DNA of 64,000 nucleotides from Candidatus Leptovillus affinis (lineage in GTDB: Bacteria > Chloroflexota > Anaerolineae > Promineifilales > Promineifilaceae), in contig JADIYP010000005.1 in NCBI GenBank assembly GCA_016705235.1, forward strand, positions 190,067-254,066. Reading direction: 5' to 3'. A model generated the notes under the pieces. It saw nothing but the letters and a program-made list of their open reading frames with translations. It ran no database searches and was not told the origin of the DNA. Below are positions 2,252 to 42,947 of this stretch, piece after piece (position 1 is the stretch's first letter; each line of letters begins with the position of its first letter). The translations under genes were made by a program, and so were the position numbers.

Positions 2252-5200
2252 TTAGCGCAAAATCATGGGCAAAAACTGTAGCGGTCCTGCTGCTTTGCAG
2301 CCGCCCACAGAGGTACTACCCAGCGTGCGCGGGGCGACATAGAGGAGGGCGCCATTGGAAAAAGTCACCCATCGCGGCGTGCCGGTGGCATTATACGCAG
2401 TGCATGTGCGATTCCCTGTCATAGGGTCAATGAAGACAGCATAGGTCGGAATGTTTGCCGTCACTGTTGTATCTACTTGGCCGACGGCATTCAAGGTGTG
2501 GAGCCAATGATAGGTATGCGCGGTTGTTTCGCCAGCTTCCTGAGCGCCGTCCGCCACGTAGTTTGGCGCATTGGCCCAACGAGCCAGTGCAGAAGCCGGG
2601 TCGGCGAACGATTCATATTGCCACAAAATATCATGCCAGTGCCCTTCAGCGCCCGGGGCGGCGTAAAGTGCGTTGAGATTGCGAATCACATAATCAGGCC
2701 GGTGTCCGAGATACAGCGAACTGCCCGTCAGAGGCAGAAAATTGATGCCGTGAATCTCTTCAGGGTTGGCCGTCCACCATGTGGCGTAGGCGTTGCCGTG
2801 TCCCCAAAGAATGCCGGTCGTCTCAAAGGGATAAGGTGTGGGGAAAACTTCTTCATCCACATCAAACCAATACTGCTCAATGGCTTGCTGTTCGGTGGTA
2901 TAGATAAATATGCCCGCATCGCGCATTGCCTCGTTGCCTATGGCCGATCCCCATTGAATCATGCCCGCGGCGAAATTCATCGCCTCTGAACTAGACTCTT
3001 GATTATTCCCCGCGCCAAATGCTTGATGCCCGGCCGCCCAACTATGCCCTGCATAAGCATCGAAGTGACGTAAATAGGGGAAGCGGGTATCTGTGCGCTC
3101 CCAATTGGCGGCATCCCGTACCAATAATTCGATACTGCCCTCATAGTTAGCCGCCCATGCCGGGTCATACTGCGCGATTGTCGCCGCCGTCATCACGTAG
3201 TAGCCCCAATGAAAATTGTGGTCGTTAATCTGGCTGTCGGCGCCAAAGCCACTGGGATACCCTTGCAGCACATTCCAGTTAGTATCCAAATAGAAGAGAT
3301 GGGGAATTTGTCCATCGAACCAATCTTCCATGGTTCGTTTGAGATAATTCAGGAAGCTGTCCCGTTCGGTTATCATCCCTTGTTGGTGCGCAAGATGAGC
3401 AAGTTGGGCAAGACGATTGAAATTTTTCCCTTCCCAATATGTTTCGCGTGTGTCGGTGGTGTAGTCATAGTTGCCGCTGGGGTCGTACATATCCTGAATA
3501 TATGCTCGTAGTTGGGCATCCGTGTACCCATCGCGGTTCTCAATTGCCAGATCGGGCAAGGCAGGTATTACCCCGCCAAACTGCATCTGCGTGGTAAACG
3601 CATCTGCCTCATAAAGTCGCATCTCTCCCCGCGAGGTGGTGTAACTTAGCCCCGTATTGGTGGGCGCGTTGGCCAGATTTAGCCATTGGTGCCGGTAGAG
3701 CGCGATGAGCGGTAGAGGCGAAAGCGTGCCGCCAGACTCTTTGGCCTCCGTGGTGAGTTGGAAATTAGTAGTGACTTGTTGGGTGGTCCCGTCCACGTTG
3801 TAATCAACGCGCGTGTGGGTGACAAAGTTGTAGGCATGTTGGCGAAACAACTCTAATGTGCTGGCGTTGTTATCTGGCAGAGCGGCTACCGCCAGGTAAT
3901 TGGCTCCGGTGGGCGCATTTAGCGTAATGTTCAGGCCATCTTGCGTCCATGTAGAGCCTGTGGGAGCAAAGAGGGCGTAGCGCGAGCCAAAATTGTTGCT
4001 GGCCGTAAAGGCGAAGACCTCTCCGTCGTTCACGATATCCAGAGGCGTAGCCACCAGCTTAATGACGTAAGCGCCGCCTGTCTTTGTAAAGAAGACATAG
4101 GGTAAGCCGTGGCCGAAAGTGGCGGAAAGGGAGTTGACGCCATCGTCCCAAAAAGCCGTTACGGTCCAATCGGAGTAGTCATCAACGCGGGTATTTGGGG
4201 CGTTCAGGCCGGCCACGGTTACCTTGAGATGCTCTGCCCCAGGGCCGGGCAGCAGATAGTTGGCGTAACCAGTTATCGCTCCGGTAGGCGCGGTGTTCGT
4301 GCCCGCCTGAAGCTCCCGTGTGTAGCTCATGCGTAAACCATCTGGTCGCGCTTGCATGGAGAAGGGGTGGGGGTGCATGATTTGGGAATAGGGTTCACGG
4401 GGCGGAGCCGATGCCGCGCCTTGGTTCCAATCCCAGATGAGCGAACTCCACCAATCGTTGGTTTGCAGGGGGCCGTTGTAGCTGCTTGTGATCTTGGGGG
4501 TTGCTGGACTATAGCCGGGGTTATCTACGGCCGGCCAGTAGGTGACTGAGGTTTCACCGGCGGGGAGGAGGGTTGTATAACAGCCGACACCGGGAAGGGC
4601 AACGGCCGTATCAGGCACACCGAGACAACTCACAGATGCCGGGGTGGGAATGGCTGTGGGAAGTGGCGTTGCCGAAGGAATGGGTGTAATCGTGGGTGTT
4701 TGGTAAACCGTTGGCGAGGGCGTGGGGGTGATTGTGGGGGAAGATGTCGGGGTTGGCGTGTCACAACTGCCGGTGCTTATATTGGTAAAGGGCAGGACTA
4801 ACCTTGATTGCTGCCCTTCGCTGCTCGTAGCTGAGGTGCGGACATCACTCGGCGCTCCGCCGATGGCATTCCAGAGATGAATTTGAATGATGCCATTGGT
4901 CAGGTTGCTGTAACTGCCTACGGCCGTTTGGATGCCCCCAGAGTTGGTATGAGTATAGGTTTCCCAATCCACAATGGGATTGGTGGCAAAGTAGTTATAC
5001 GTTTCAACGCGGTCAGCCGAGCCGTTGCCGTCGAAGTCATAGCGAATTTCGGCATGGATGCCATTGCCAACGGCCGTGCCGGCATCGACAAAGAGCGCAA
5101 ATTGCGTCGGCTGATTGGCGTAAGTACCGCTCACTCCTGTAATTTGATAGACAAGATGAGCGCCATTACTGGCTTGAGGCATTGTGTCTTTGTCGGCCAA

Positions 5201-5717: not shown

Positions 5718-7232
5718 CTATGTGGGCGGAGTAATGGGGGGCGAATTGAAAACGGCCGTTTTCAATTCAAACACCTCTAACGAGTTCAAATGAACAGCGG
5801 CCCCTTCCGTGAAAATATCAAATTCTATGCGGCTTTCATGCGGAAACAGCCGTTCGCTAAAACAAATCAGCCCATCGCTGGCAAATACTTCAACCATGGA
5901 ACGATCGACAAAAATATGCAGGCGCAAACGGCCGTGATGCAAAGGAAGCTCAGTCTGGTGTACGCCGGGGAAATCCGCATGGAAATAAACCTGCCCCGCC
6001 TGGCGGCGGTCCGTATATAAGATTTGTTTTTGCGGGTCATAACCTATTGTCATGGCATTTTCGTGACCAGACAGTACCCGAACGCCAAAACAATCCGCCT
6101 TTACCACACCCTCAAATTCAGCCATGATCTCTAGCGTGGTTCCTTTGATAATAGGATGAAAAGGGGCATCCGGTTGAATAGTCGCGTTGGTCCAAATCCA
6201 GCGAGTATGACGCAGCCGCTTGAGTTCGGAAACAGGCTGTTGAATCAGGCGAATACCGGCATCCGTTTTCACCAGCTCCAGCTCTCGCGGAATACTCAAG
6301 TCTCCACGCCAGGCAGACGTGGGAATAGCAGCCGCATAACGCCAATTATTCATCCAGGCCAACCAGATACGACGGCCGTCCGGCGCATCATGCCATGATT
6401 GGGCCGCGTAAAAATCTGCGCCAAAATCGGCCCAAAACACACAATCGCCTGGCTGGTCGCAGGTGAATGTATGGCCATCAAACGTCCCGATAAAATATCT
6501 CGTGCCGCTTCTGCCCCCCGGCATTCTGTTGTCGAGGCCAATAGCTAACACCCAACGGCTTTCGGAACAACCCGCCACCGGCAGTTGAAACAAATCGGGC
6601 GTCTCCCACAAACCGGTTGCGGCGCTTTGTGGATGGCTGAAACGGCCGTTTTCCTGCCAATCAATCAGATTATCCGAGGTGTAAAACAATATCTGATCGT
6701 TAGCGGCCAGCGACATGACCCAATGGCCCGCACCCTCCTCCGCTTGATACCAGATCACTTTTGGGTCTCGGAAATCACGCAAATGCGCCGGCGTAGGAAT
6801 GATGGGATTGCCCGCGTACTTTGTCCAGGAACGGCCGTTGTCTGTACTATAAGCCAGACTCTGACTTTGATCCCTCGTGTCAGGGTGATGGTGGGTAAAA
6901 AACAAAATCATCGCCTCCTCACCAAAACCCGCGCGATTGTGCCAATCAATGACCCCACTGCCCGAAAAAATATACCCCAATTCATCAGGAAACAAGGCGA
7001 TGGGTAAATGCTGCCAATTCACCAAATCTCTACTGACCGCATGGCCCCAATGCATCGGCCCCCAGACCGTGTCATCCGGGTAAAACTGGTAAAACAGATG
7101 GTACTCCCCAGCATAAAACACCAGGCCATTCGGGTCATTCAGCCACCCCTTCCGCGGCGTGAAGTGAAATTGTGGGCGGAACGGCTCACTCAGCACAAGC
7201 GCCGGCGATGTAGATATGTCATCTCTGGCCAT
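5718..7232 (-). CDS. Glycoside hydrolase family 32 (beta-fructofuranosidase / sucrose-6-phosphate hydrolase / levanase type)
   Basis: FHFTPRKGWLNDPNGLVFYAGEYHLFYQFYP matches the WMNDPNG catalytic box. Also present are FRDPKV (the RDP motif) and WETPDLF (the EC-type acid/base context). Confidence 0.9.
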   Translation of the reverse strand: MARDDISTSPALVLSEPFRPQFHFTPRKGWLNDPNGLVFYAGEYHLFYQFYPDDTVWGPMHWGHAVSRDLVNWQHLPIALFPDELGYIFSGSGVIDWHNRAGFGEEAMILFFTHHHPDTRDQSQSLAYSTDNGRSWTKYAGNPIIPTPAHLRDFRDPKVIWYQAEEGAGHWVMSLAANDQILFYTSDNLIDWQENGRFSHPQSAATGLWETPDLFQLPVAGCSESRWVLAIGLDNRMPGGRSGTRYFIGTFDGHTFTCDQPGDCVFWADFGADFYAAQSWHDAPDGRRIWLAWMNNWRYAAAIPTSAWRGDLSIPRELELVKTDAGIRLIQQPVSELKRLRHTRWIWTNATIQPDAPFHPIIKGTTLEIMAEFEGVVKADCFGVRVLSGHENAMTIGYDPQKQILYTDRRQAGQVYFHADFPGVHQTELPLHHGRLRLHIFVDRSMVEVFASDGLICFSERLFPHESRIEFDIFTEGAAVHLNSLEVFELKTAVFNSPPITPPT

Positions 7233-20836: not shown

Positions 20837-21040
20837 CTCCTGGGAATATAAACCCTTGGGGTTTTGCCGGAGAAACCTGAACAGACCCCAAGGGTTTGCT
20901 CCTGGGAATTTGGAATATTTGGACACCAAACCCCTGGGGTTTTGCCGGAGAAACCTGAACAGACCCCAAGGGTTTGCTCCTGGGAATTTGGAATATTTGG
21001 ACACCAAACCCTTGGGGTCTTGCCGGAGAAACCTGAACAG
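20837..21040 (+). repeat. About 2.5 copies of a 78-bp tandem repeat, each unit carrying the inverted pair AAACCCTTGGGGT / ACCCCAAGGGTTT
   Basis: Units start at 20850, 20928 and 21006. A further ACCCCAAGGGTTTGCT lies at about 20736. The ORFs predicted here (20802..21176, 20856..21050, 20864..21223) are repeat artefacts. Confidence 0.85.
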
Positions 21041-28677: not shown

Positions 28678-28989
<312 letters not shown>

Positions 28990-28997
28990 TGGTGAAC

Positions 28998-29300
28998 ATG
29001 AACGTGCAAACGATACAAATCTCACCCCACGCTCGTCTACGGATGGCACAACGGAATGTGTCGGACGCCCAGATTTTGTTTATACTTACACATGGTCACG
29101 CGGTACACTGTGCCGGAGCCATTCTCGTCACCTTACGTCAAAAAGACATTCCTAAATCAGAGCGGGCAAAGGATACTTTTGCCCGTTTAGAAGGGGTAAC
29201 GGTTGTGATGAATCGATCAGCGCCAGTTGTGCAAACGGTATGGCGGAATCGCCGTCATGGGCTGCGCCACATTCGCCAGAAACCCCGTTATTCCTGTTAA
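28998..29300 (+). CDS. DUF4258-like protein (putative toxin)
   Basis: ISPHARLRMAQRNVSDAQILFILTHG resembles the DUF4258 H-x-x-x-R-M-x-x-R-x-I motif. The ATG at 28998 overlaps the upstream gene end. Confidence 0.5.
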   Translation: MNVQTIQISPHARLRMAQRNVSDAQILFILTHGHAVHCAGAILVTLRQKDIPKSERAKDTFARLEGVTVVMNRSAPVVQTVWRNRRHGLRHIRQKPRYSC

Positions 29301-30434: not shown

Positions 30435-30794
30435 TCATTTTGCCGATTTCACGCGAATTTTGCGATCTGTGACCACGACAAGACAACCAGACCACTGCGC
30501 TACCGCTTCGCTGGTGAAGATCACTTCAACTTTCTGGATCAACTGTCGGCGAGTGGGGTTGTTGAGACGGAGCAACAAAACACCATGATGTGTACCGGGC
30601 TTGAAGTGCTGAACATTCGAGAAATCAAGGTCTTGGGTGATCAAAAAGCGATTCTCTGCTTGAGCCGCCTGCCAAACCTGATCATCATCCGCCCCGTCAA
30701 GATTTTCTTCCGGGACCGTTTCGGCATCATGCCCAAGCTGGCGCAGCATAACCGCCAATTCAACCGGCAGATTTTCATCCAGCTTGATCTGCAT
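30435..30794 (-). CDS. DUF5615 / Mut7-C-like PIN-fold putative toxin
   Basis: MQIKLDENLPVELAVMLRQLGHDAETV...DDDQVWQAAQAENRFLITQDLDF. Confidence 0.7.
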   Translation of the reverse strand: MQIKLDENLPVELAVMLRQLGHDAETVPEENLDGADDDQVWQAAQAENRFLITQDLDFSNVQHFKPGTHHGVLLLRLNNPTRRQLIQKVEVIFTSEAVAQWSGCLVVVTDRKIRVKSAK

Positions 30795-30796
30795 GG

Positions 30797-31030
30797 TTAT
30801 ACCGCCAGAACCATCGCTGGTATATCTTCGGCCGCAGAGTCAGCCGCAAAGGCAATCAAGGCCCAGATCGCTTCTTCAGTCAGTGTGGGAAAGCTGTGCA
30901 GAATGTCTTCCACACGGTCGCCTTCGGCCAGACTGCCTAAGATGGTGCGGATGGGGATACGGGTGCCTTTGACAACGGCCGTTCCGCCACAGATTTTAGG
31001 GTCGCGCACAATATAGTTTGTATAGTCCAT
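30797..31030 (-). CDS. DUF433 putative antitoxin
   Basis: IVRDPKICGGTAVVKGTRIPIRTILGSLAEGDRVEDILHSFPTLTEEAIWALIAFA. It lies 2 nt upstream of the DUF5615 gene. Confidence 0.75.
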   Translation of the reverse strand: MDYTNYIVRDPKICGGTAVVKGTRIPIRTILGSLAEGDRVEDILHSFPTLTEEAIWALIAFAADSAAEDIPAMVLAV

Positions 31031-31066: not shown

Positions 31067-33544
31067 ATGTCAAAACCGTATGTCTATCAACAGCAAGTTC
31101 AAGAAGCTCTGTTGCAAGGTCAAAATATCATCCTGCAAGCACCCACCGGGGCCGGCAAAACCCGCGCCGCGCTAACCCCATTTCTGGATACATTTTGGGA
31201 TGCGTCAGCCAGTGTCTTTCCTAAAAAGTGCGTTTACATTGTGCCCATGCGTGTCCTGGCAAATCAATTCACCGAAGAGGTACGCAAAAAAGCAGCGCGA
31301 TACGAACGTATCTATAAACGCCAACTTAACGTGGGACGACAAACTGGCGAATATAGGGAAGACCCCGAATTTCGCGCCGCCATTACCTTTGCCACCATTG
31401 ATCAGGTGTTGAGCAGTTGGCTGATGCACCCGTACAGCCTGTCGGCGCGGAAGGGAAACCTGAATACTGGCGCGTTTGTCGGTAGTTACCTAATTTTTGA
31501 TGAGTTCCACCTTTTCGATCCCGATTCTATGCTGCCAACAACGCTACATATGCTGAAAACCCTAAAAGGCGTAAGCCCTTTTGTGTTGATGACGGCGACC
31601 TTTTCTCAGGAAATGTTGCAAGAACTGGCGCAGGAATTGGGGGCAACGGCCGTTCTCCTTTCGCCCGACGATCTACAAAAGATCCCTTCGCAGCACAAAA
31701 CGCGCACCTTCCATACGGTAGACCGGCCTTTGGTAGGTGACGATGACGTATTCATTGACCAGATTGTGGCTGCGCACCTGGCACAAGAATCAGATGACCA
31801 GCGGTCTCTGGTGGTGTGTAACCAGGTAGAACGAGCGCAACGTGTGTATCAGGCATTGACGCGACATCCTGACCTGACCGATGTTACCGTGCGCCTGCTG
31901 CACAGCCGCTTTTTGCGTGCAGACCGGCAAAAGATTGAGGCAGAAATCCGGCGCGAGTTCAATAAAGAGCGGGCACAGCATACGCAGCGCAGCATGATTT
32001 TGGTAGGTACACAGGTAGTGGAAGTAGGATTGGATATGAGCAGCCGCGCTTTACATACGGAACTGGCTCCGGCAGCGGCCGTTTTGCAGCGGGCGGGGCG
32101 ATGTGCGCGGTATGAAGGGGAAGAAGGCCATGTGTATGTCTACCGCCTAGAACCGGAAAGTTATGCGCCGTACCACAACCGTTATGCCGCTGAACAATGC
32201 GACCTGACCTGGGAATGGCTGCAAACCCATCAAGACCACCACCTTTCTTTCCAGGATGAACAAGCCCTCATCAACCATGCCCACACGCCATCAGACCGTA
32301 ATATCCTCAAAGGACTAAAAGCAGGTGAACTGGACCATGAACGTGAAATCTACGTAATCTGGCGCGGTGATGGCAATCGTGGCGAGGCGCAAAAGCTGAT
32401 ACGCAACATTCAGGCAGTGTCCATTGTTGTTCACCCTGAACCAGACAAACTGGTTTCTGCGCCTTTCAAAGTTGAGAGCTTCTCCCTTTTTCCCGGCACG
32501 TTACATGGCAAATTCAAGGAGTGGCAAAAACACAATAATGCTACCGATGAATTTTTCGATGAAGGCCATTTAGAATGGTTGATCCGAAGGCTTGAGGAGC
32601 TGCCGGACAGTGAAGAAGACGCGCAAGGAAATCAGGTGGTGCGTTATGGTTTCAAAGATGTAACATCGTCGGCTGCTTTGCATGGGCCGCTGTTTGCTGT
32701 TAATCCAGCGTTGGTCGGTTATACGCCGGAGATGGGATTAACTTTATATCCGGGAGCGCCGTATACATGTTCAACGCCAGAGCAAGACAAAGGCGCAGCA
32801 GCGCAAAGTCCGGCACATAGTTCCAGGTTAGAAAGCTACTGTCGGCATATCGAACTGGTACATGAAGCCTTTCGGGATGATTTTTTACGGCCGTTAGCCC
32901 AAAGCGCCGTTCGCCTGGAAAAGGCATTTAGCTGGTCGCCAGGCATTATCGCCGAAACAGCCCATCTGGTTATTTGCCTGCATGACGTGGGCAAACTCAA
33001 CAACCAGTGGCAGCAGTGGGTGCGGAACTGGCAAAAACAAACGGGGCAGGTATATGAAAAAGATGGCGTTTACGCCCATTGGGACGGAGATGGTTCGGAA
33101 ACCCACCGGACGCTGGAACGAAAGCTAAAAAGGCAGCGCCCCCACCACGCGATTGAAGGGGCCATCGCCAGTATTCCTTTGCTGGAGGCTGTTATTCCCG
33201 AAAGCTGCGAACCACTTCTTCGAGCGGCGTTCACGGCCGTTGCCCGCCATCATACCACCTTTGCCAGCGAGGCAAGCAATTATCGCTTGATCCCTACGTA
33301 TCGGGCAGAGATAGACAAGACGCTGCAATTGCCACAAGTGCCGGTTACTTTATTCACAAAATGCCAGGGCGTGCCAATTGAAGATCGCATTGAGGCGAAT
33401 TTGCCTTTACAAAGAGAATTACAGGAGAACTATTTTATTCGTGAGACGAATCAGGAAGATATGTGCAGCTATATGCTTTTGGTGCGGGCTTTGCGTCTGG
33501 CCGACCAAAAAGGGACGGAACGCGGTTCACGGGACGCGAGTTAA
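31067..33544 (+). CDS. cas3: Cas3 helicase with a C-terminal HD nuclease domain
   Basis: Motif I ILQAPTGAGKTRAAL and motif II LIFDEFHLFD, with helicase C motifs. The HD-type residues lie only near the C-terminus (LVICLHDVGKLNNQW, ...RHHTTF). Confidence 0.85.
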   Translation: MSKPYVYQQQVQEALLQGQNIILQAPTGAGKTRAALTPFLDTFWDASASVFPKKCVYIVPMRVLANQFTEEVRKKAARYERIYKRQLNVGRQTGEYREDPEFRAAITFATIDQVLSSWLMHPYSLSARKGNLNTGAFVGSYLIFDEFHLFDPDSMLPTTLHMLKTLKGVSPFVLMTATFSQEMLQELAQELGATAVLLSPDDLQKIPSQHKTRTFHTVDRPLVGDDDVFIDQIVAAHLAQESDDQRSLVVCNQVERAQRVYQALTRHPDLTDVTVRLLHSRFLRADRQKIEAEIRREFNKERAQHTQRSMILVGTQVVEVGLDMSSRALHTELAPAAAVLQRAGRCARYEGEEGHVYVYRLEPESYAPYHNRYAAEQCDLTWEWLQTHQDHHLSFQDEQALINHAHTPSDRNILKGLKAGELDHEREIYVIWRGDGNRGEAQKLIRNIQAVSIVVHPEPDKLVSAPFKVESFSLFPGTLHGKFKEWQKHNNATDEFFDEGHLEWLIRRLEELPDSEEDAQGNQVVRYGFKDVTSSAALHGPLFAVNPALVGYTPEMGLTLYPGAPYTCSTPEQDKGAAAQSPAHSSRLESYCRHIELVHEAFRDDFLRPLAQSAVRLEKAFSWSPGIIAETAHLVICLHDVGKLNNQWQQWVRNWQKQTGQVYEKDGVYAHWDGDGSETHRTLERKLKRQRPHHAIEGAIASIPLLEAVIPESCEPLLRAAFTAVARHHTTFASEASNYRLIPTYRAEIDKTLQLPQVPVTLFTKCQGVPIEDRIEANLPLQRELQENYFIRETNQEDMCSYMLLVRALRLADQKGTERGSRDAS

Positions 33545-33931
33545 GCCAGCCATTTGCTCAATATGATGATCGAAAGAGAAAACGGCCGTTACCCCCATTT
33601 GCTGCGCCAGCGCCAACAAAGAGCAATCGGGGTAGCTCCAATCCTTATCGGCGTAACGGCTAAAAAGCGACCAGATGACTTGACGCATGTCATCGGTCAA
33701 AGGAACAAGCTGAAATTGGGCGCTTGCCTGAATGCTTTCACCCAATTGAATCGCTTGCCTGCTGCCCAAACGCGCCTTAATCAGCGTCATAGTTTCGGCA
33801 AAGATGAATTCTGGGATGAAGAAAACAGCCTCTCTGTTAGCCAGGGCAAACTGTTTGGCGACCGGATGAAACCTATCTTTGGCGTTCAACAGCGCCAGAA
33901 ACGCGCCAGAATCAATAATGAATTGGGGCAT
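33527..33931 (-). CDS. vapC: PIN-domain toxin VapC
   Basis: MPQFIIDSGAFLALLNAKDRFH...FSFDHHIEQM is PIN-type. It overlaps the cas3 3' end by 18 nt on the opposite strand. Confidence 0.8.
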   Translation of the reverse strand: MPQFIIDSGAFLALLNAKDRFHPVAKQFALANREAVFFIPEFIFAETMTLIKARLGSRQAIQLGESIQASAQFQLVPLTDDMRQVIWSLFSRYADKDWSYPDCSLLALAQQMGVTAVFSFDHHIEQMAGLTRVP

Positions 33932-33933
33932 AA

Positions 33934-34260
33934 TTATGACGACTTGTTGTTGATCCGCACGGCCTGCCCGTCACTACCCCGACGATACCTTTGGGGCGCA
34001 ATTTCCCAGGCGTGCAACTCCTGCGCTTCCGCGCTCATCATGTCCGCCAACAAATATAAATCTGGGTCCTGGCTGACAGGAATGCCATCAATCAACGGTT
34101 TTTCGCTGCTGAATGCACCAATGAGATCAAAAACGGGATCGGTTATCTCTACCTCACTGCGCTCAATGTGCAGCCGAACCCGCGTCCGGTTGGGCAGTTT
34201 AAGCGGGGTTAACGGCCGTAATACCCCATTTTCATATACGGCCGTAATTATTTCGCTCAT
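33934..34260 (-). CDS. Antitoxin (AF2212/DUF104-like N-terminus) paired with VapC
   Basis: MSEIITAVYENGVLRPLTPLKLPNRTRVRLHIE. It lies 2 nt upstream of vapC. I prefer the ATG at 34260 to the one at 34284. Confidence 0.7.
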   Translation of the reverse strand: MSEIITAVYENGVLRPLTPLKLPNRTRVRLHIERSEVEITDPVFDLIGAFSSEKPLIDGIPVSQDPDLYLLADMMSAEAQELHAWEIAPQRYRRGSDGQAVRINNKSS

Positions 34261-34344
34261 GATCTGTCTCCCGTTCCATAACATCCAGTACTCTCTAATG
34301 AGTCTGATTCCATATTCTGGAATTAACGTTATGAAAACAATAAT

Positions 34345-34368
34345 GTTTCAGTAATCTCTGGCGATTCT
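34345..34368 (-). repeat. Orphan CRISPR half-repeat (24 nt identical to the 3' two-thirds of the repeat, minus-strand orientation)
   Basis: The plus strand reads GTTTCAGTAATCTCTGGCGATTCT, the reverse complement of AGAATCGCCAGAGATTACTGAAAC. It lies 5' of the vapB-like gene on the minus strand and about 45 nt upstream of the putative Cascade promoter on the plus strand. Confidence 0.9.
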
Positions 34369-34410
34369 GCTTCTACAACACAGACTTAACGTACAAGAGC
34401 ATTGTATCGC

Positions 34411-34439
34411 TTGACAGGAAAAAGGCAATCGTTTATTCT
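34411..34439 (+). promoter_or_regulatory. Sigma70-like promoter candidate for the cas8-cas7-cas5 operon (TTGACA - 17 nt - TATTCT)
   Basis: Read directly in the AT-rich gap upstream of cas8. Not validated. Confidence 0.3.
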
Positions 34440-34468
34440 TTCATCATCACTTTAATATAAAAACTATA

Positions 34469-34711
34469 ATGGGAAAAAAATTAAACGATATGAGCGAAAT
34501 TTTACAAGAACACGATGTCTGTCAATCATATGAAACGCTTGTTGAATCCATTTATCAATCACGAATAACGCTTAACGAATTGGTGAGCGCCGATTTAACA
34601 TTGCACCCACCGATTATTATATACATTATGCGGGATGTTCGTGGCTGTGTAAAGTCGCTTATGCCTTATCTGGAGCAACTTTCAGCGCACATGGAGGATG
34701 CGTATGAGTAA
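34469..34711 (+). CDS. Hypothetical small protein upstream of and overlapping the cas8-like gene
   Basis: 80-aa ORF that looks more AT-rich by eye than its neighbours, has no clear Shine-Dalgarno and matches no family I recognise. It may not be expressed. Confidence 0.25.
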   Translation: MGKKLNDMSEILQEHDVCQSYETLVESIYQSRITLNELVSADLTLHPPIIIYIMRDVRGCVKSLMPYLEQLSAHMEDAYE

Positions 34712-36530
34712 CAACCATTTTATCATAGACAAAATCACGGGTACGTTCGCAGATGATTTGCTCGCTGCCGGTTTCATGGCTGTGTTAGATAACCTGTATC
34801 GTCGGCAGGTCGGCATAGCCAATATGACACAAGTGGATTGTGGTCATTATTATCAGATAATGGCCGATGCGCCGTTAGACTTGGAAAAGGTGCAGCGCGA
34901 GGCTGAATTTTTTATCGGCGCAAGATTCCTGCGTACCGAGGGCAATAAAGACAAATTGCCAACCGGCTTACCCGAAGCATACTTTGTGGATTACAAAGAA
35001 AAACGGGATGAGCGCAACGCTTTTTTCGATGCCCTGAACACTTTAGAAAAAACGGTGAGTAAGGCGTATTGGCGCGGCGACGAAGAGGTGCTGGCTTATT
35101 TGCCCACACCCCCTGATCGCCACTACGACATTTACCGGATGATGAACAGCCCAACAACGCTCATTGGCTACACGCGGCTGGTGAATCAGTGGGTGCAGGT
35201 GGGGGAAAGCGGCCGTACCGGTGACGTGTGTTACCTGTTGTGCCAGATGTTCAGCAGCGATGCAGACGGCCGTTATCAGCCCAACGATGTGGCAGCGGCC
35301 GTCGCCGCCTGGAAAGACATTGCCAAAACCGAGCAATGGCCGCTAAATGACACAATCACAACCGCCAGCCAGGTTCTCAATCCGGCGCAAGGCAAAGGCG
35401 TCAACCGTCCTAAGCCGGATGGGGTATCTCCCACAAATCTATCTGGCTTTTGGTTGTTAGAGTGGCTTAAACTGGTCGGCTTTTACCAGATCGGGTTAAC
35501 GGCCGTGCTGCGCGACAGTAGCGACCGCAAAACCTATGTCCCCGCCGCCGGACGCATGACCATCCGCACCCGCGAGCAGATCGACATCCGCTTTCGTAAC
35601 CTTACCCGCGCCAACGAAAGCGCCACCCGCGCCGACATCCTCACCGTGCTGCAATACCTTAGAGCATTCATCCGCGTTACCAGGGAAGCCCAAGAGCAGC
35701 CCGACATGCCCCAACTGCGCTTTAGCCGCCACCGTTCGGTCCGCCCCGCCGACTTCATTCATGGCTTCCACGTCGCCTTTTATAAGAATTTGGGTAACGC
35801 GGCGGCCGTCATGAACATGGCCTTTCTTAATTTGCCCGGTTGGGTACAAATCCATAATGCGGACGAAGCCCAACAATTTCTGGACATTTTGGACGAACAC
35901 GCCGGCATCGTCCGGCAGTTTGCCGAAAACAAAGGCGACGAACTTGATCTCCTCGGCCAATACCGTGACTTCGTTGTCGCCGACAATCTGGACCCATTTT
36001 TTGAATTCAATACTGCCTACAGCAGTTGGCTAATCAGCGCCGGGGAGAAGCCAGGCTTCCCACCGCGTAAATTTTCCACCCACAATTTAAGGAGGTTACT
36101 TGTGAGCGTACAACATGATTTAAGTGACATTGTAGAATCGCCCGGTTTCATTAATATTGCTCGCGCTATTCGTGAAAGCACAGTTCGGGCACAGTACCGT
36201 AAGAACCAAAAGAATGATAAACGGTACACCGTTCGCTACGGTTTGGGGCGTGATTTGGTGCGCAAAGCGTATCACCGCGAAGAATTTGTCGCCGCTCTTA
36301 GCGAATTCTTGCTGACTTATAACGCTGAAAATGCTCAGGTTTTAGAGCGTTATCCAAAAGACAAATACCCCCAATATAAATATCGGTGGGATGTTCAGAC
36401 GGGCGACATTAAAGATATTTTGTCTCTAATAGACAAGTATTCCAATCCCCCCGATCTTATCGCCAAACTACTGGTGGCTTATGGGTATGCAAGTGATTAT
36501 CAAGCCAAAAGCGAGGAGGAAGCCGAATGA
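34704..36530 (+). CDS. Cas8-like large Cascade subunit (positional call; possibly Cmx8/DevT/Cst1-like)
   Basis: About 608 aa, the first gene of the effector operon, immediately before the cas7 and cas5 genes. GGAGG lies 6 nt before the ATG at 34704. I can name no diagnostic motif. Confidence 0.55.
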   Translation: MSNNHFIIDKITGTFADDLLAAGFMAVLDNLYRRQVGIANMTQVDCGHYYQIMADAPLDLEKVQREAEFFIGARFLRTEGNKDKLPTGLPEAYFVDYKEKRDERNAFFDALNTLEKTVSKAYWRGDEEVLAYLPTPPDRHYDIYRMMNSPTTLIGYTRLVNQWVQVGESGRTGDVCYLLCQMFSSDADGRYQPNDVAAAVAAWKDIAKTEQWPLNDTITTASQVLNPAQGKGVNRPKPDGVSPTNLSGFWLLEWLKLVGFYQIGLTAVLRDSSDRKTYVPAAGRMTIRTREQIDIRFRNLTRANESATRADILTVLQYLRAFIRVTREAQEQPDMPQLRFSRHRSVRPADFIHGFHVAFYKNLGNAAAVMNMAFLNLPGWVQIHNADEAQQFLDILDEHAGIVRQFAENKGDELDLLGQYRDFVVADNLDPFFEFNTAYSSWLISAGEKPGFPPRKFSTHNLRRLLVSVQHDLSDIVESPGFINIARAIRESTVRAQYRKNQKNDKRYTVRYGLGRDLVRKAYHREEFVAALSEFLLTYNAENAQVLERYPKDKYPQYKYRWDVQTGDIKDILSLIDKYSNPPDLIAKLLVAYGYASDYQAKSEEEAE

Positions 36531-36739
36531 AACGCACGGCCGTTTCCTCCAGCAATCTCGCTTCAGTTGGTTACGATCCCGCCAGCCAATCTCTGGAAAT
36601 CGAGTTTACAACGGGTCGGGTTTATGAATACTTTGATGTTCCCCAACAAACCTATGACAAGTTGATGGCGGCTGAGTCACACGGCCGTTACTTCAATGCC
36701 TATATTCGTGACAATTACCATTACACAAGAATTCGATAA
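36527..36739 (+). CDS. KTSC-domain protein embedded in the Cascade operon
   Basis: SSNLASVGYDPASQSLEIEFTTGRVYEYFDVPQQTYDKLMAAESHGRYFNAYIRDNYHYTRI matches the KTSC (lysyl-tRNA synthetase C-terminal-like) domain pattern. Its start overlaps the cas8 stop (ATGA). Confidence 0.75.
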   Translation: MKRTAVSSSNLASVGYDPASQSLEIEFTTGRVYEYFDVPQQTYDKLMAAESHGRYFNAYIRDNYHYTRIR

Positions 36740-36751
36740 GGAGAACTAACC

Positions 36752-37729
36752 GTGTCCATTTATTCCATTTCCCTCTCTGCCCAACTCACCCTGGATATGC
36801 ACAGCCTCAACAACGAAGGCGGCGAAGGCAACCAGATTCAAACCCGCATGGTCAACATCGTGGATGGCAACGGCCGTTTGCAAAACGTCAATGCCATCTC
36901 CGGCGACATGATTAAGCACATCCTGGCCGAGCATCTGCACCGCATTGCTACCGCCAACGGCCTGCCCCTATGCGCCGGTTGTAAAACCTTTAATGCCAAC
37001 CGCATCAGCGCCGATGAAAGCTACATGGCCGCCATCGCCAACATGAACGACGCCGACTCGTTAACATTGATGCTGGAAACATGCGCTATGGATGATATGC
37101 TGGGCAACCTGATCACGGCCGGTTCCAAATCTTTGCCGCGCAAATCGGTGGTTGAGTTTGGATGGGTGGTCGGTTTGCCCGAACTGACCCGTTCCGATAG
37201 CTATTTTCACGTCAAGTATTCCAACGAACGGGGAAAAGCTGAACGAGATGCCCAAAAAGGCGAAGAATCACGCGGGGCAAATTTGGGGCAAGCCATCTTC
37301 CATCGGCCGGCCAACAGCGGCGTGTACGCCCTGGTTGCTACCATCGAAGCGGCGCGTATTGGCTTCAACGACATTACGCAGAAATATGTGTTAGATGAAG
37401 CCCAACGACAGGCGCGATTGAAAGCCTTGCTCGAAGCCCTTCTCTACACCCTCATGGAACCGGCCGGAGCCATGCGCGGCACTCAAGCCCCCCACATCGT
37501 AGACGTGGCCGGGGTGATCACCGTCAGCCAAAACGTCATTCCCGCGCCCACCCTCAGCCCGCTCAAAGGAGGGTACGATCAGGAATTAACCGACCTGTGC
37601 GCGACGCTGAACAGCATTCGGCCCAACGCTCTGGCAGCCCACTCCTTCAGTTCAATGAACGGCTACGCCCAAACCGTGCGCGACCTCATCCAAAGTGCCA
37701 CGCCGTACACGTTGCAATATGCAGGTTGA
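36752..37729 (+). CDS. cas7: Cas7 backbone subunit, DevR/Cst2/Csa2 type
   Basis: SISLSAQLTLDMHSLNNEGGEGNQIQTRMVNIVDGNGRLQNVNAISGDMIKHILAEHL is the DevR-family signature. A GTG start follows AAGGAG. Confidence 0.85.
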   Translation: MSIYSISLSAQLTLDMHSLNNEGGEGNQIQTRMVNIVDGNGRLQNVNAISGDMIKHILAEHLHRIATANGLPLCAGCKTFNANRISADESYMAAIANMNDADSLTLMLETCAMDDMLGNLITAGSKSLPRKSVVEFGWVVGLPELTRSDSYFHVKYSNERGKAERDAQKGEESRGANLGQAIFHRPANSGVYALVATIEAARIGFNDITQKYVLDEAQRQARLKALLEALLYTLMEPAGAMRGTQAPHIVDVAGVITVSQNVIPAPTLSPLKGGYDQELTDLCATLNSIRPNALAAHSFSSMNGYAQTVRDLIQSATPYTLQYAG

Positions 37730-37733
37730 AGCA

Positions 37734-37766
37734 AGATTGGTTCAATCTTTAAGATTGAACCAATCT
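37734..37766. repeat. Double palindrome AGATTGGTTCAATCT-TTA-AGATTGAACCAATCT between cas7 and cas5
   Basis: Read directly in the sequence. Same family as 20761, 26200 and 56461. Confidence 0.7.
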
Positions 37767-37794
37767 CCCGACCTGCCCATGCGAGTGAATAACC

Positions 37795-38484
37795 ATGATA
37801 TGGATACAAGCAATTTACCAGCCGACCACCCTGTTTAGCTTACGGCCGTCCTGGACAACCTCATCCGGGGGTAAAAGTCTGCTGCTGCCGTCGCCTTACG
37901 CGCTGAAAACGGCCGTTCTCGACGCCGCCATTCGCACCAGTGGTTTGGGGCAAGCCGAGCAAGCCTGGCCCTGGATACGCGACATGGGCATCGGCGTGCA
38001 ACTACCGCCACAAATCGTCGTCACCAACCTGTTCGCCAAAATTCTGCGCCTGCGCCGCAATCCGGCTACACCCGGTTCTGCTGATGTTGGCCCTTTCCAG
38101 AAAACCATCGCCTATCGCGAATATGTCTACCATCCACAACCGATCACCCTGGCTTTTGCTGTCCCCGATGGTCAGGCGGCGCAGCTTGGCGATTGGCTGG
38201 CGCAAATTAGCTATCTGGGCAAGCGCGGCGGCTTTGTGCAACTGTTGGCCCCTCCTATACCCCTGGCCGATAGCGCTGGCTTTGTGTTATTGACAGCCGA
38301 CGTTACCAGCTTCCCCCTCAATGGCCTGGTACAACAGCTAGACGATTGTGATCCGAAGATGAAATTTGTGGAGGCGAACATTTACGACAGCAAAAAGCCA
38401 AAGCGGGTGGTGCGGCATGTGGTCTTACCCTACCGGCTGGCAAAATCCAGCCGCGCCTATTCCCTCTACCAACACACCGGCTAA
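37795..38484 (+). CDS. cas5: Cas5-like Cascade subunit
   Basis: 229 aa, directly after cas7. The N-terminus FSLRPSWTTSSGGKSLLLPSPYALKTAVLDAAIR fits the Cas5 RAMP N-terminal pattern. The call is mainly positional. Confidence 0.55.
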   Translation: MIWIQAIYQPTTLFSLRPSWTTSSGGKSLLLPSPYALKTAVLDAAIRTSGLGQAEQAWPWIRDMGIGVQLPPQIVVTNLFAKILRLRRNPATPGSADVGPFQKTIAYREYVYHPQPITLAFAVPDGQAAQLGDWLAQISYLGKRGGFVQLLAPPIPLADSAGFVLLTADVTSFPLNGLVQQLDDCDPKMKFVEANIYDSKKPKRVVRHVVLPYRLAKSSRAYSLYQHTG

Positions 38485-38544: not shown

Positions 38545-38847
38545 CTAAACCGTCTCATGCACAAGCACATCCCGCTCAATTTGCGCGCCCACCTCATCTT
38601 GCGCCACGTCCAGATCGTAGTCAAGTTGCAGGCCAAGCCAGAATTGCGCCGATGTGCCAAAAAATCGCGCTAAACGCAAAGCCGTATCGGCCGTAATCCG
38701 TCGCCGACCATGAATGATCTCATTAATCCGTCGCGTCGGCACACGCATCGCCAGAGCGAGTTTGTTCTGGCTAATATCCATTGGCAGCAAAAATTCTTCC
38801 AACAAGACTTCACCCGGATGTAATGGAGGTATTTTATTATTCGCCAT
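38545..38847 (-). CDS. higA: HigA antitoxin (XRE-family HTH)
   Basis: HPGEVLLEEFLLPMDISQNKLALAMRVPTRRINEIIHGRRRITADTALRLARFFGTSAQFWLGLQLDYDL. Confidence 0.85.
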   Translation of the reverse strand: MANNKIPPLHPGEVLLEEFLLPMDISQNKLALAMRVPTRRINEIIHGRRRITADTALRLARFFGTSAQFWLGLQLDYDLDVAQDEVGAQIERDVLVHETV

Positions 38848-38899
38848 TTCAGCACCTTCTTAAGCTAATTGTGCTGAAACACAGGTTAATACTATCAGT

Positions 38900-38922
38900 G
38901 TTTCAGTAATCTCTGGCGATTC
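38900..38922 (-). repeat. Orphan CRISPR half-repeat (23 nt identical to the 3' part of the repeat, minus-strand orientation) between higB and higA
   Basis: The plus strand reads GTTTCAGTAATCTCTGGCGATTC. Adjacent CTGAAACAC (38873..38881) can pair with GTGTTTCAG (38898..38906). Confidence 0.9.
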
Positions 38923-38956
38923 AAGCTGACTCGAAATGAATCAACTAGACACTGAT

Positions 38957-39238
38957 TTAATGATAATCAACAATTTCTACAGCATGGGCATCACCATCGC
39001 GCCATTCAAAACAGATTCGCCATTGTTGATTGACCCGAATGCTATATTGGCCCGCTCGATCACCATGCAATTGCTCCAATCGGTTACTCGGCGGTATGCG
39101 CAAATCGTCCAAAGAGACCGCCCGATTGAGCATACGAAGTTTCCGAAATGCGCGTTGTTGAATATCTTGAGGCAGCTTACGAGAAAATTCTCGATGAAAA
39201 ATCCTTTCTGCTTCCCGATCCCGAAAGTTGCGAATCAT
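38957..39238 (-). CDS. higB: HigB toxin (RelE/ParE superfamily, plasmid maintenance killer type)
   Basis: MIRNFRDREAERIF...LDDLRIPPSNRLEQLHGDRAGQYSIRVNQQWRICFEWRDGDAHAVEIVDYH. Confidence 0.85.
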   Translation of the reverse strand: MIRNFRDREAERIFHREFSRKLPQDIQQRAFRKLRMLNRAVSLDDLRIPPSNRLEQLHGDRAGQYSIRVNQQWRICFEWRDGDAHAVEIVDYH

Positions 39239-39330: not shown

Positions 39331-40359
39331 ATGACCAACCTACAACTCACCCACCTTCGCTTCGACTGCACCGCCACCACACCCATCAAAATGGGCAGCC
39401 ATTACGCCGGTAACAACCTGCGCAACGCCCTCGCCAACGTCATGCGCCGCGCCACCTGCCCCGAATACCGCACCAATCGCCCGCCCGAACCCGCCCACGC
39501 AGCCACCTGCCCCGCCTGCTGGCTGCTCTCGGCCAACCTCGACCCTGGCACCGTCATCCGCGCCTACGCCGTCGCGCCACCCCTCCCGCCCCGCAGCTAC
39601 CTCCAAGCCGGTGAGCGCTTCAGCTTCGCCCTCACCCTCTTCGGCGACGGCTTCCACTACCTGCCCTACGTCGTCCTGGCCGCCAACGAGGCCGGACAAA
39701 GCGAAGGCATTGGCCCAGGCCGGCGCGAAGGGCTGGGCCGATTTGCCGTGGACAGGATAACGGCCGTAGACCCCCTGCGCGGCGACATGCAATCTTGCCT
39801 GGCCCCCGGCGACGCCTTCGTGACTGTACCCAATCTGTTTGTAGACGAAACGGCCGTGCGCCACATCAGCCAGATGCACCACCAAGCCCTCAACGGCCGT
39901 CATCTCACCCTTCACTTCCTCACCCCCACGCGGCTGGAAGAGAAAGGGCAGCTCTACAAACTGCCTGATTTCTCCGTCCTCTTCCGGCGCTTGCTCTACC
40001 GCATAGACGAATTGGGCCGCCAGTTTGCCGGGCAAGAGCGGCGCGATCCAGCCGAGGTGGCCCATCTTCACGCCCTGGCCGACAGCGTGCGCCTGGTAGA
40101 TGCGCAAACCGACTGGCAAGAAATGTGGGTCTACTCCGGGCGCAAGGGCGAGAAAACGCCCTTGAGCGGCTTTACCGGCACGGCCGTCTACCGCAGCGAC
40201 GATTGGACCGAGCTGCTGCCCTGGCTGGTATGGGGTCAGGCGACCCACGTCGGAAAATCAGTTGTCAAGGGCAACGGCGTCTACGAATTAGGGGGTGGAA
40301 ACTGGCCTCCCTACTGGGATTGGCTGCGCGCCGACCACCTGTGGGAAGCTGCGACCTGA
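39331..40359 (+). CDS. cas6: Cas6-like crRNA endoribonuclease (large, MYXAN/Cmx6-like)
   Basis: It lies immediately upstream of the array leader. The C-terminal glycine-rich loop HVGKSVVKGNGVY fits the Cas6 G-h-G-x5-G-h-G pattern. It has a Cys-rich insert, CPEY...CPACW. Confidence 0.6.
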   Translation: MTNLQLTHLRFDCTATTPIKMGSHYAGNNLRNALANVMRRATCPEYRTNRPPEPAHAATCPACWLLSANLDPGTVIRAYAVAPPLPPRSYLQAGERFSFALTLFGDGFHYLPYVVLAANEAGQSEGIGPGRREGLGRFAVDRITAVDPLRGDMQSCLAPGDAFVTVPNLFVDETAVRHISQMHHQALNGRHLTLHFLTPTRLEEKGQLYKLPDFSVLFRRLLYRIDELGRQFAGQERRDPAEVAHLHALADSVRLVDAQTDWQEMWVYSGRKGEKTPLSGFTGTAVYRSDDWTELLPWLVWGQATHVGKSVVKGNGVYELGGGNWPPYWDWLRADHLWEAAT

Positions 40360-40531: not shown

Positions 40532-42947
40532 GTCGCCCCACCAGAGAATCGCCAGAGATTACTGAAACACTCGGCCCCAGAGATGCCAGAGATGCACGGT
40601 CGCCCCACCAGAGAATCGCCAGAGATTACTGAAACACTTCTGCCCGGCAGCCATTGCCATGTGCTGTAGCGGACGGTCGCCCCACCAGAGAATCGCCAGA
40701 GATTACTGAAACACAACATGAGGCTTACGGCCGTCAGCTTTCGCTGACATTGGTCGCCCCACCAGAGAATCGCCAGAGATTACTGAAACGCCGTCCGGGT
40801 GGCCCCCCAGAGAATCGCCAGAGATTACTGGAATTGCGGACTCCTGTGAGTTCCCTGCGGTCGCCCCACCAGAGAATCGCCAGAGATTACTGAAACATCT
40901 CCCCAGACGCTCGAATAGTTTCCCTGACCAGGGTCGCCCCACCAGAGAATCGCCAGAGATTACTGAAAACCCCGGGGGGTGAGCGGGGGGAGGGCGCGGG
41001 GGGTCGCCCCACCAGAGAATCGCCAGAGATTACTGAAACACGCGAATCGGCGACCAGCCGCCGACCATCGGGTCGCCCCACCAGAGAATCGCCAGAGATT
41101 ACTCACACGCGCGGGGCGAGGGTCGCCCCACCAGAGAATCGCCAGAGATTACTGAAACTACTTTGGTTTTTCTTCTTGCTTTGGTTGCAGGTCGCCCCAC
41201 CAGAGAATCGCCAGAGATTACTGAAGGGGACCAGAGAATCGCCAGAGATTACTGAAACTGGTGGGTGATGATTGTTGTGTTCATCTCCATGGGCTGGTCG
41301 CCCCACCAGAGAATCGCCAGAGATTACTGAAACACCTGGCAGCCATCGCTTATCGTGTCTGGTTTGGGTCGCCCCACCAGAGAATCGCCAGAGATTACTG
41401 AAACAGACAAAACCCAGGGCCTGTCGCCCCACCAGAGAATGCCAGAGATACGAAAACAAGGTCGCCGCCCCACCAGAGAATCGCCAGAGATTACTGAAAC
41501 ACCGCCTGGCAGCCATCGTGCGCGGCGGGTCGCCCCACCAGAGAATCGCCAGAGATTACTGAAACGACGTCATACGCTGGAACGACAAAGGCAAATTGTA
41601 GGTCGCCCCACCAGAGAATCGCCAGAGATTACTGAAACAGTGTAGTCTAGTGTCGGCCAGCTTTTGCGCGTCGGTCGCCCCACCAGAGAATCGCCAGAGA
41701 TTACTGAAAACGGATTGCAGCATGCGGCACGCACCGTTCCCGCTGGGTCGCCCCACCAGAGAATCGCCAGAGATTACTGAAACGCTGACCACGCACTTTG
41801 CGCCGATATCGTCGAGGTCGCCCCACCAGAGAATCGCCAGAGATTACTGAAACGCCGGCGGGGTGGGTTGGCTGGGCTGCGCTTAGAAGGTCGCCCCACC
41901 AGAGAATCGCCAGAGATTACTGAAACTGGAGCTTAATTTTATATCGGCCGGCCAGCCGTTGGGTCGCCCCACCAGAGAATCGCCAGAGATTACTGAAACT
42001 CTGGAGGTCGCCTCCCGGCCACAGAGCAAAGGAGGAGGTCGCCCCACCAGAGAATCGCCAGAGATTACTGAAACACAATAAGAGGGGCGACTGGCAATTT
42101 TACGTGCCGCGTCGCCCCACCAGAGAATCGCCAGAGATTACTGAAACCGACTTTGACGGCATCCATTTTGACGGCTCGCCAAGGTCGCCCCACCAGAGAA
42201 TCGCCAGAGATTACTGAAACGTAACCGAAGCCATAGAAACCAACACACCCAGAAGTCGCCCCACCAGAGAATCGCCAGAGATTACTGAAACAGATAACGT
42301 CAGGCATGTGGCAGGCCGGGCACCAGGTCGCCCCACCAGAGAATCGCCAGAGATTACTGAAACAGAATCATAGCGCCGCAGCCGCCCAGCAGCATGGCCG
42401 TCGCCCCACCAGAGAATCGCCAGAGATTACTGAAACATTTGGTCTTAATCGTTTTGGCGAACTGGCCAAAGTCGCCCCACCAGAGAATCGCCAGAGATTA
42501 CTGAAACACCAGTGGCAAGGGTACGATCTTTGGCTGGTCGATACGTCGCCCCACCAGAGAATCGCCAGAGATTACTGAAACGGCACGCCCGGCCCCATTG
42601 GTGGAGCTGGTAGCACAGTCGCCCCACCAGAGAATCGCCAGAGATTACTGAAACACGAAAATCTACTGCTCTAAATCGTGCCGAGTTGCTATAGTCGCCC
42701 CACCAGAGAATCGCCAGAGATTACTGAAACATGTGTGGCTTAAATACAGCCTAGGGTCTGTCCATTGTCGCCCCACCAGAGAATCGCCAGAGATTACTGA
42801 AACGTTACACTCCCCATCGCCCACCATCGTTAACGAAAGTCGCCCCACCAGAGAATCGCCAGAGATTACTGAAACCGCAGCTTGCAACCGACCTTGACGA
42901 ACTGGCAACAGTCGCCCCACCAGAGAATCGCCAGAGATTACAGTGTT
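40532..42947 (+). CRISPR. CRISPR array with about 36 repeat units of 37 nt (GTCGCCCCACCAGAGAATCGCCAGAGATTACTGAAAC); spacers mostly 32-40 nt
   Basis: I delimited every unit by hand. 27 units are canonical and about 9 are variant, partial or degenerate. Most variants fall between 40801 and 41500; the terminal unit at 42911 has a degenerate 3' end. Orientation is inferred from the 3' ...GAAAC and from the leader position. All track ORFs within 40438..43124 are artefacts. Confidence 0.95.

Follow-up and report, generated by a model that had tools for sequence, protein, structure and literature searches.

A degenerate mini-CRISPR upstream of cas8 in a Chloroflexi type I locus as a probable guide for Cascade autoregulation

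A 64-kb stretch of a Chloroflexi metagenome-assembled genome (the window; all coordinates are window positions) contains a type I CRISPR-Cas locus, and a 24-nucleotide (nt) piece of its CRISPR repeat is located outside the array, between cas3 and cas8 (34345–34368, minus strand). We analysed this half-repeat, and all the evidence presented here was obtained in silico. We consider it very probable that the half-repeat is the first pseudo-repeat (psiR1) of a CreR/CreA-type mini-array, the RNA of which steers the effector complex Cascade to repress its own operon. The element has a repeat–guide–repeat architecture, and its position and orientation are conserved among related loci. Each of these loci has its own guide and target pair with a common motif resembling a protospacer-adjacent motif (PAM), and the targets are located close to promoters.

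The CRISPR array that defines the repeat (40532–42947, plus strand) has 35 copies of a 37-nt repeat with the consensus GTCGCCCCACCAGAGAATCGCCAGAGATTACTGAAAC. In agreement with a preliminary description of this DNA, the half-repeat is an exact copy of the last 24 nt of this repeat (AGAATCGCCAGAGATTACTGAAAC), without any mismatch. Outside the array, the repeat tail is present at exactly two places, 34345–34368 and 38900–38923 (one mismatch), both on the minus strand, while the number of matches expected from shuffles of the window was 0.00. The half-repeat had earlier been regarded as an orphan. We observed, instead, a degenerate second repeat (psiR2; 34282–34305, AGACTCATTAGAGAGTACTGGATG) 39 nt downstream on the same strand, and therefore the element is a two-repeat mini-array. 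PsiR1 comprises the hairpin AATC-GCCAGA-GATT and the 8-nt sequence ACTGAAAC, which we take, from general knowledge of Cas6 systems, to be the 5′ handle of a CRISPR RNA (crRNA). PsiR2 is identical to the repeat tail at 16 out of 24 positions. Its stem (ACTC/GAGT) is preserved through a compensatory A-T to C-G change, its handle has decayed to ACTGGATG, and the same GACTC..TAGAGAGTAC form was also observed in loci L004, L005 and L082. When the precursor is folded, both the pseudo-repeats form their hairpins in the minimum-free-energy structure (z = −2.44).

The two pseudo-repeats enclose a 39-nt spacer-like segment (psiS; 34306–34344, minus strand, ATTATTGTTTTCATAACGTTAATTCCAGAATATGGAATC), the length of which is within the range of the 29 real spacers of the array (28–40 nt). 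The guide part of psiS corresponds to its positions 1–15 (34330–34344), and in its 5′ part psiS is related to its counterparts in L005 and L008 (TTTAATGTTTTTGTA). A promoter for the mini-array (TTGCCT-16-TACAAT; 34401–34428, minus strand) was predicted about 30 nt upstream of psiR1, back to back with the promoter of the cas8 operon. All the promoters described here are predictions from consensus matches scored out of 12, and this one scored 9. The PAM-distal half of psiS has a perfect palindrome (ATTCCAGAATATGGAAT; 34307–34323), and PAM-distal hairpins are also present in the psiS of L005, L008, L015 and L047. Judging from these sequences, the hairpin may be a design feature that limits the extension of the R-loop. 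The palindrome may also have a role as an operator for VapB, the antitoxin encoded by the adjacent toxin–antitoxin (TA) pair vapBC. As an explanation of the palindrome this candidate was set aside, since loci devoid of vapBC likewise have such hairpins in psiS, on the PAM-distal side.

The effector genes cas8, a KTSC-domain open reading frame (ORF), cas7 (DevR/Csa2) and cas5 (34698–38484, plus strand), together with a small ORF ahead of cas8, are placed under a predicted TTGACA-17-TATTCT promoter (34411–34439, plus strand; score of 10). The half-repeat ends 43 nt before this promoter, close to the figure of about 45 nt given earlier. We searched for matches to psiS over the whole window on both strands, ignoring the guide positions 6 and 12. 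The single best non-self match was a protospacer on the minus strand (ATTATAGTTTTTATA; 34456–34473, read from 34470 down to 34456), which is the predicted Cascade-binding site. It is flanked at its 5′ side by a putative PAM, CCC, the complement of GGG at 34471–34473. Guide positions 1–5, 7–11 and 13–15 match the target, the mismatches are exactly at 6 and 12, and there is no match beyond 15. Within the 352-bp stretch between psiR1 and cas8 the target score was 13 out of 13, whereas the 29 real spacers reached 10 at most. Two of the 5000 composition-matched shuffles reached 13, and CCC or CCG is found at 6 of the 700 positions of the region. The target is 86 nt away from psiR1 and 17–34 nt after the −10 element of the predicted promoter, which is at about +10 to +27 relative to the predicted transcription start. 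In the near-identical contigs L086 and L087, the target has T in place of A at position 6, where no pairing is expected. The preliminary description had suggested a search for partial complementarity between the sequence following the half-repeat and the vapBC or cas8 promoters. The only significant match was in the leader of the cas8 operon; the vapBC promoter gave none.

The small ORF (34490–34711, plus strand) is the first gene downstream of the target. It was listed as an 80-amino-acid (aa) ORF starting from the ATG at 34469. In L086 and L087, a stop follows three codons after the equivalent ATG, and hence 34469 is not the real start, which places the target in the 5′ leader. The ORF probably starts at the ATG at 34490 (73 aa). 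Its stop overlaps the start of cas8 (ATGAGTAA), annotated at 34704.

We next turn to the related loci. A Cas8 relative was detected in 268 genome loci, and we examined 80 of them, in which Cas8 is 33–60% identical to that of the window (best tblastn segment). Conservation in relatives, proposed as a check in the preliminary description, was borne out: the same layout between cas3 and cas8 is present in 19 other diverged loci. The mini-array set thus has 20 distinct loci including the window, with the Cas8 proteins 33–58% identical to the window's. To this set belong L026, L057, L072 and L074, which were added with slightly degenerate handles, as well as L082, also added, the closest full-length relative (Cas8 58% identical). 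The closest Cas8 relative, P0003 (76% identity), is on a 2.9-kb contig that does not include the upstream region. By the plan common to the 20 loci, cas3 is followed by a minus-strand psiR2-psiS-psiR1 and a promoter, and cas8 comes after these, usually preceded by a small ORF. Upstream of cas8, the sequence TACTGAAA with its preceding hairpin was found only in the minus orientation, never in the plus orientation, among the 80 loci. The stems of psiR1 and psiR2 differ among the loci and yet stay paired (ACCC/GGGT, ATCC/GGAT, ATTC/GAAT, ACGC/GCGT). A terminator hairpin follows psiR2 in L005, L008 and L015 (by eye) and in L082 (by scan), as expected for a small separate RNA gene.

Every mini-array locus has its own psiS site located 77–150 nt from psiR1, in which the guide is matched over its initial two or three segments of 5 nt. 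The three nucleotides 5′ of the sites are CCC in 16 of the 20 loci, CCG in two, and TCC and CCT in one each; extended by one nucleotide, the form is TCCC in 13 loci. In a permutation control, a score of at least 11 was obtained for 16 of the 20 own-locus pairs compared to only 3 of the 380 cross-locus pairs. As own-locus pairs outscore the foreign ones, the guide and the target co-vary. Targets were found on both strands, the plus strand in 11 loci and the minus strand in the other nine, and this points to PAM-dependent recognition of double-stranded DNA and argues against antisense pairing with the mRNA. A strong TTGACA-like/17/TAxxxT promoter is located between psiR1 and the target in 15 of the 20 loci, with its −10 element ending 3–25 nt before the target.

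The targets of many relatives have no nucleotide opposite to guide position 6, 12 or 18, while the consecutive 5-nt guide segments are kept. Such deletions were observed in L004 (positions 12 and 18; target at 4452–4474), L026 (12, 18 and 24; about 2745–2766), L078 (6 and 18; 5774–5792), L055 (9692–9713) and L057 (9639–9656), and also in L005, L015 and L023. We found no mention of sixth-position deletions in the mini-array preprints of Liu et al. and Shmakov et al. In L067 (1975–2011), the first pseudo-repeat has a tandem duplication of the 13-nt hairpin arm and handle (GAGGATACTGAAA twice).

The aforementioned data suggest the following mechanism. The effector operon and the minus-strand psiR1-psiS-psiR2 unit would be transcribed divergently. 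Cas6 (39331–40359, plus strand; PF10040 and PADLOC Cas6 matches), presumably the nuclease that cuts psiR1 and psiR2, would cleave both the hairpin-bearing pseudo-repeats and produce a crRNA-like RNA with an ordinary 5′ handle of 8 nt, ACUGAAAC. The RNA would be loaded into Cascade, and the complex would then bind the CCC-flanked site 10–27 nt downstream of the predicted transcription start of the small ORF-cas8-cas7-cas5 operon. Pairing over the first 15 guide positions, except 6 and 12, would be enough for binding and not for Cas3 cleavage, as the match is too short to trigger Cas3. The bound Cascade would act as a roadblock for transcription, so that the effector represses its own operon together with the small ORF ahead of cas8. 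Ordinary crRNAs, by competing, and anti-CRISPR proteins, by inhibiting Cascade, would be expected to relieve the repression. Transcription of the mini-array, processing by Cas6, loading of Cascade and repression are the steps that we infer by analogy with the CreR and CreA RNAs and the I-F1 mini-array, which have been characterised in experiments. The preliminary description had offered autoregulation of cas genes, the CreR concept, as its fallback; the guide–target and comparative data support it.

Four observations weigh against this autoregulation. The predicted promoter of the mini-array is weak and is inconsistently found in the relatives. In local alignment, a gapped plus-strand match of psiS at 34433–34456, over the −10 box, scores slightly higher than the CCC-flanked site; it was rejected as the target, as it has no CCC PAM and is not anchored as in the other loci. 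The mini-array is an accessory element, since 44 of the related loci, in which cas3 and cas8 are at most 121 nt apart, manage without it and without a small ORF. Finally, the assignment of CCC as the PAM derives from the 20 regulatory targets, because searches in IMG/VR did not yield a protospacer. Two spacers used for an independent check had no exact match in this database. A 17-mer common to related spacers had 10 matches, none of which extends to full length (18–25 of 34), and these are attributable to chance.

Judged at the level of sequence, the mini-array has the features of the CreR/CreA class, the CCC beside its target being a putative PAM. CreR mini-CRISPRs that autoregulate cas genes have been established experimentally for subtypes I-B, I-E and V-A, and autoregulatory mini-CRISPRs were noted for I-C, I-D, I-F and I-U (Liu et al., bioRxiv 10.1101/2023.03.10.532045). 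The element described here resembles CreR in having a degenerate psiR1-psiS-psiR2 architecture, in lying between cas genes, and in keeping the 5′-handle part in psiR1. The partial complementarity is likewise PAM-proximal (about 15 nt), the target, flanked here by a putative PAM, is about 100–140 bp upstream of the first Cascade gene and next to a promoter, and the predicted outcome is autorepression. Unlike the systems listed by Liu et al., the window effector is Cas8a/Cas5a/Csa2-like with a Cas3 having a C-terminal HD domain, and the host belongs to Chloroflexi. Also unlike CreR, a small ORF is nearly always placed between the target and cas8 in the window-type loci, and the lineage of the window has a vapBC pair fused downstream of psiR2.

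The survey of Shmakov et al. (bioRxiv 10.1101/2023.03.03.530964) covers mini-arrays directed at the promoters of cas8 or at cargo genes, notes mismatches at guide positions 6 and 12 and a hot spot at the I-D cas3/cas10d junction, and includes a validated I-F1 mini-array. Similar to these, the window mini-array is transcribed opposite to cas3, has its seed next to the better-conserved repeat and mismatches its target at 6 and 12. As in the I-D loci, the junction may be empty, have only the mini-array, or have the mini-array with cargo that includes TA genes. Three differences were observed. The survey of Shmakov et al. reported no mini-arrays in bacterial subtype I-A, whereas the loci described here type as I-A-like by PADLOC. 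The vapBC pair of the window is behind the mini-array, unlike the TA cargo located between the mini-array and the target. And the targets of several relatives lack the sixth nucleotide rather than mismatching it.

The circuit type (CreR/CreA) is thus already known, and what is new is the undescribed host lineage (Chloroflexi) and the effector family. Our data would extend the self-regulation of Cascade by degenerate mini-CRISPRs to a widespread Cas8a-like type I system of Chloroflexi. The 20 independent guide and target pairs predict the PAM of the system (5′-CCC, usually TCCC) and a 5+1 periodicity of pairing. The analysis also indicates that a half-repeat beside a TA gene need not imply TA coupling. 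The targets that delete the sixth nucleotide and the small ORFs that travel with the mini-array are the points that we flag.

The small ORFs suggest another purpose for the same cassette. In CreTA and CrePA modules, the RNA antitoxin CreA is paired with an RNA toxin, CreT, or a protein toxin, CreP (bioRxiv 10.1101/2024.01.05.574328; Li et al. 2021, as cited elsewhere). In Acinetobacter baylyi, the creA-creP module of the I-F system has a 103-aa toxin ORF between the CreA target and cas8f (bioRxiv 10.1101/2024.01.05.574328). The mini-array might, in the same way, be an RNA antitoxin (CreA) and the small ORF a protein toxin, with cas autoregulation as a side effect. Loss or inhibition of Cascade would then unleash the toxin. 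We regard this reading as tentative and somewhat unlikely. It is compatible with Cascade autoregulation at the RNA level, and differs from it only in the purpose of the circuit. Consistent with a toxin, the layout is that of the cas3-cas8f spacer region of A. baylyi, having a creA-like mini-array, a short ORF, and the guide target at the promoter of the ORF. The small ORFs (73–111 aa) accompany the mini-array in 19 of the 20 loci and are absent from the 44 tight cas3/cas8 junctions, which have neither. They fall into at least three unrelated families in one slot, as expected of swappable cargo (family A in the window, L004, L005, L008 and L082; family B in eleven loci; family C in L015, L023 and L026), and the I-D hot spots described by Shmakov et al. 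have the order cas3, mini-array, cargo and cas10d. On the other hand, L064 has the mini-array and the target directly before cas8 with no ORF. In the window, the ORF is translationally coupled to cas8 through the overlap of its stop with the start codon of cas8, an arrangement that typifies operon partners rather than toxins.

As a difference from CreTA and CrePA, the small ORFs do not have KilAC or any other recognisable toxin domain; none of the families matched Pfam, KilAC included, and the window ORF did not match NCBIfam, Pfam or PADLOC. The homologue searches were not informative either: among 5.8 billion proteins only two close clusters were found, and a phmmer search of 1.84 billion representative sequences added no convincing relative, with two marginal partial matches (E = 4.7e-06 and 8e-04). 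A single-sequence AlphaFold model of the ORF is all-helical but unreliable (predicted local distance difference test score, pLDDT, of 57.6).

The preliminary description had placed the half-repeat in the leader of vapB, about 60–85 nt before the antitoxin start, and proposed that cutting by Cas6 or binding by Cascade couples VapBC to the integrity of the effector. The distance is correct (85 nt to the likely vapB ATG at 34260, and 61 nt to the first in-frame ATG at 34284), and so are the gene identities (an AF2212-like antitoxin and a PIN toxin, HigA/HigB, and Cas6). The vapBC pair (vapC, 33527–33931; vapB, 33934–34260; minus strand) is directly downstream of psiR2. As psiR2 is followed, 21 nt further along this strand, by the start of vapB, and a scan predicted neither a terminator nor a separate promoter in this interval, vapBC is probably read through from the mini-array promoter, its mRNA being a probable 3′ extension of the mini-array precursor. 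The pair is a neighbour specific to this lineage, and probably a read-through passenger. The arrangement is kept only in the near-identical contigs L086–L094, which are essentially the same population as the window and do not constitute independent evidence. A repeat tail inside higBA (38900–38923), conserved in L001, L009 and L086, may indicate that Cas6 sites in TA transcripts are a theme of this locus.

The comparative data, however, stand against the coupling. All the 19 other mini-array loci are devoid of vapBC at the mini-array, and therefore the repeat is not there because of vapBC; terminators follow psiR2 in several of them. The closest independent vapBC (L002; 73% and 69% identical) sits elsewhere and has no repeat-like sequence upstream. 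PsiS targets the leader of the cas operon rather than the vapBC promoter, and the loss of Cascade would leave the mini-array promoter unchanged. Nor did we find signs of vapBC being a cargo regulated by the mini-array, as it is on the far side of the mini-array and has no psiS match nearby. Of the proposed TA safeguard, only a lineage-specific possibility, based on the probable read-through, survives, and a half-repeat that serves vapBC is very unlikely. We assign a similarly small probability to a secondary coupling, in which cutting by Cas6 at psiR2 would define the 5′ end of the vapBC mRNA. In a combined form, the cas3/cas8 cassette would be a CrePA-like safeguard with new toxin families, and the type II TA pairs would be wired into Cas6 processing. 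The 5′ end of the vapBC mRNA would then be created by Cas6 at psiR2, while higBA has a conserved hairpin and handle of the Cas6 type between its two genes. Without Cas6 or Cascade, three toxin systems would be disturbed together. This we judge to be unlikely. Finally, the half-repeat could be non-functional debris, either a recombination scar or a decayed mini-array left by a repeat-mediated rearrangement. Within the repeat, CCAGAGA is duplicated, and partial array units at 40811, 41085, 41204 and 41423 indicate that repeat fragments clearly arise in this genome. However, the position, the orientation and the two-repeat architecture are conserved across loci with Cas8 only 33–58% identical. 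The stems are kept by compensatory changes, and psiS differs by locus and yet matches its own CCC-flanked site, whereas debris would not co-vary with a target. We therefore consider debris extremely improbable, and favour Cascade autoregulation by the mini-array.

The second half-repeat reported 5′ of higA was also found. It is located between the higB stop and the higA start (38900–38923, minus strand, one mismatch). The region around this repeat tail corresponds to 38848–38956 in the window, 8275–8393 in L001, 5174–5299 in L009 and 10475–10580 in L086. In L009, the stem AATC/GATT is changed to ATTC/GAAT. The tail is enclosed by a conserved outer stem (CAGTGT...ACACTG), and a conserved hairpin that follows it (GTTTCAGC...GCTGAAAT) buries the ribosome-binding site and the start codon of higA. 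This element yielded neither a second repeat nor a PAM-flanked target. As a cis-acting guide like the first one it was rejected, since the search for targets of its downstream sequence in the window, L001 and L009 remained at noise with or without the CCC/CCG filter. From its sequence it looks like a Cas6 processing site or a structure in the TA mRNA, and not a guide.

The CRISPR-Cas locus of the window encodes a Cas8 for which NCBI has an identical protein listed under "Chloroflexi bacterium". In gene order, it comprises cas4 with cas1 (minus strand), the HTH/DUF4258 pair, the gene of a WYL regulator and a DUF433/DUF5615 pair (minus strand). It continues with cas3, vapC-vapB (minus strand), the mini-array region, the small ORF and cas8, and ends with the KTSC-domain ORF, cas7, cas5, higA-higB (minus strand), cas6 and the array. 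PADLOC models identified Cas8a (3.8e-51), Cas5a (3.9e-58) and Cas7/Csa2-DevR, consistent with Cas8 being Cas8a-like and Cas5 being Cas5a-like. Cas3, best matched in PADLOC by Cas3g, is a single helicase whose HD domain is C-terminal, and we did not recognise Csa5 among the window proteins. Subtype I-A is marked by Cas8a, Cas5a, Cas7/Csa2, Cas11/Csa5 and a split Cas3′/Cas3″. Going by these protein matches, the system is best called I-A-like. The KTSC-domain ORF (PF13619, E = 1.6e-27; 70 aa, 36527–36739) is between cas8 and cas7 and overlaps the cas8 stop. It is also present in L005, L006, L009, L010, L081 and L086, and is missing from most of the relatives.

We also observed that the cas locus is interrupted at gene junctions by four TA-like pairs: HTH_11/DUF4258 (28681–29300), DUF433/DUF5615 (PIN-like; 30435–31030), vapBC (33527–34260) and higBA (38545–39238). 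The cas effector genes share their strand with only one of these pairs, HTH_11/DUF4258; the other three are on the opposite strand. At the same junctions, relatives have other TA pairs; L082, for instance, has a PIN pair between WYL and cas3, and L010 has vapBC between cas5 and cas6.

The polarity of the array is plus, because its last repeat copy is degenerate at the 3′ end. Several repeat units are truncated or fused (40790–40834, 41072–41108, 41191–41258 and 41423–41442), and these are probably products of recombination at the internal repeat duplication CCAGAGA. Several spacers share blocks, for example TGGCAGCCATCG or GACGAACTGGC, as if variants of one target had been taken up repeatedly. 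Rfam at gathering thresholds gave no match in the window. Unrelated to the CRISPR locus, the window also has a 78-bp tandem repeat at 20850–21040 (2.4 copies, 97% identical) with internal palindromes (AAACCCTTGGGGTTT).

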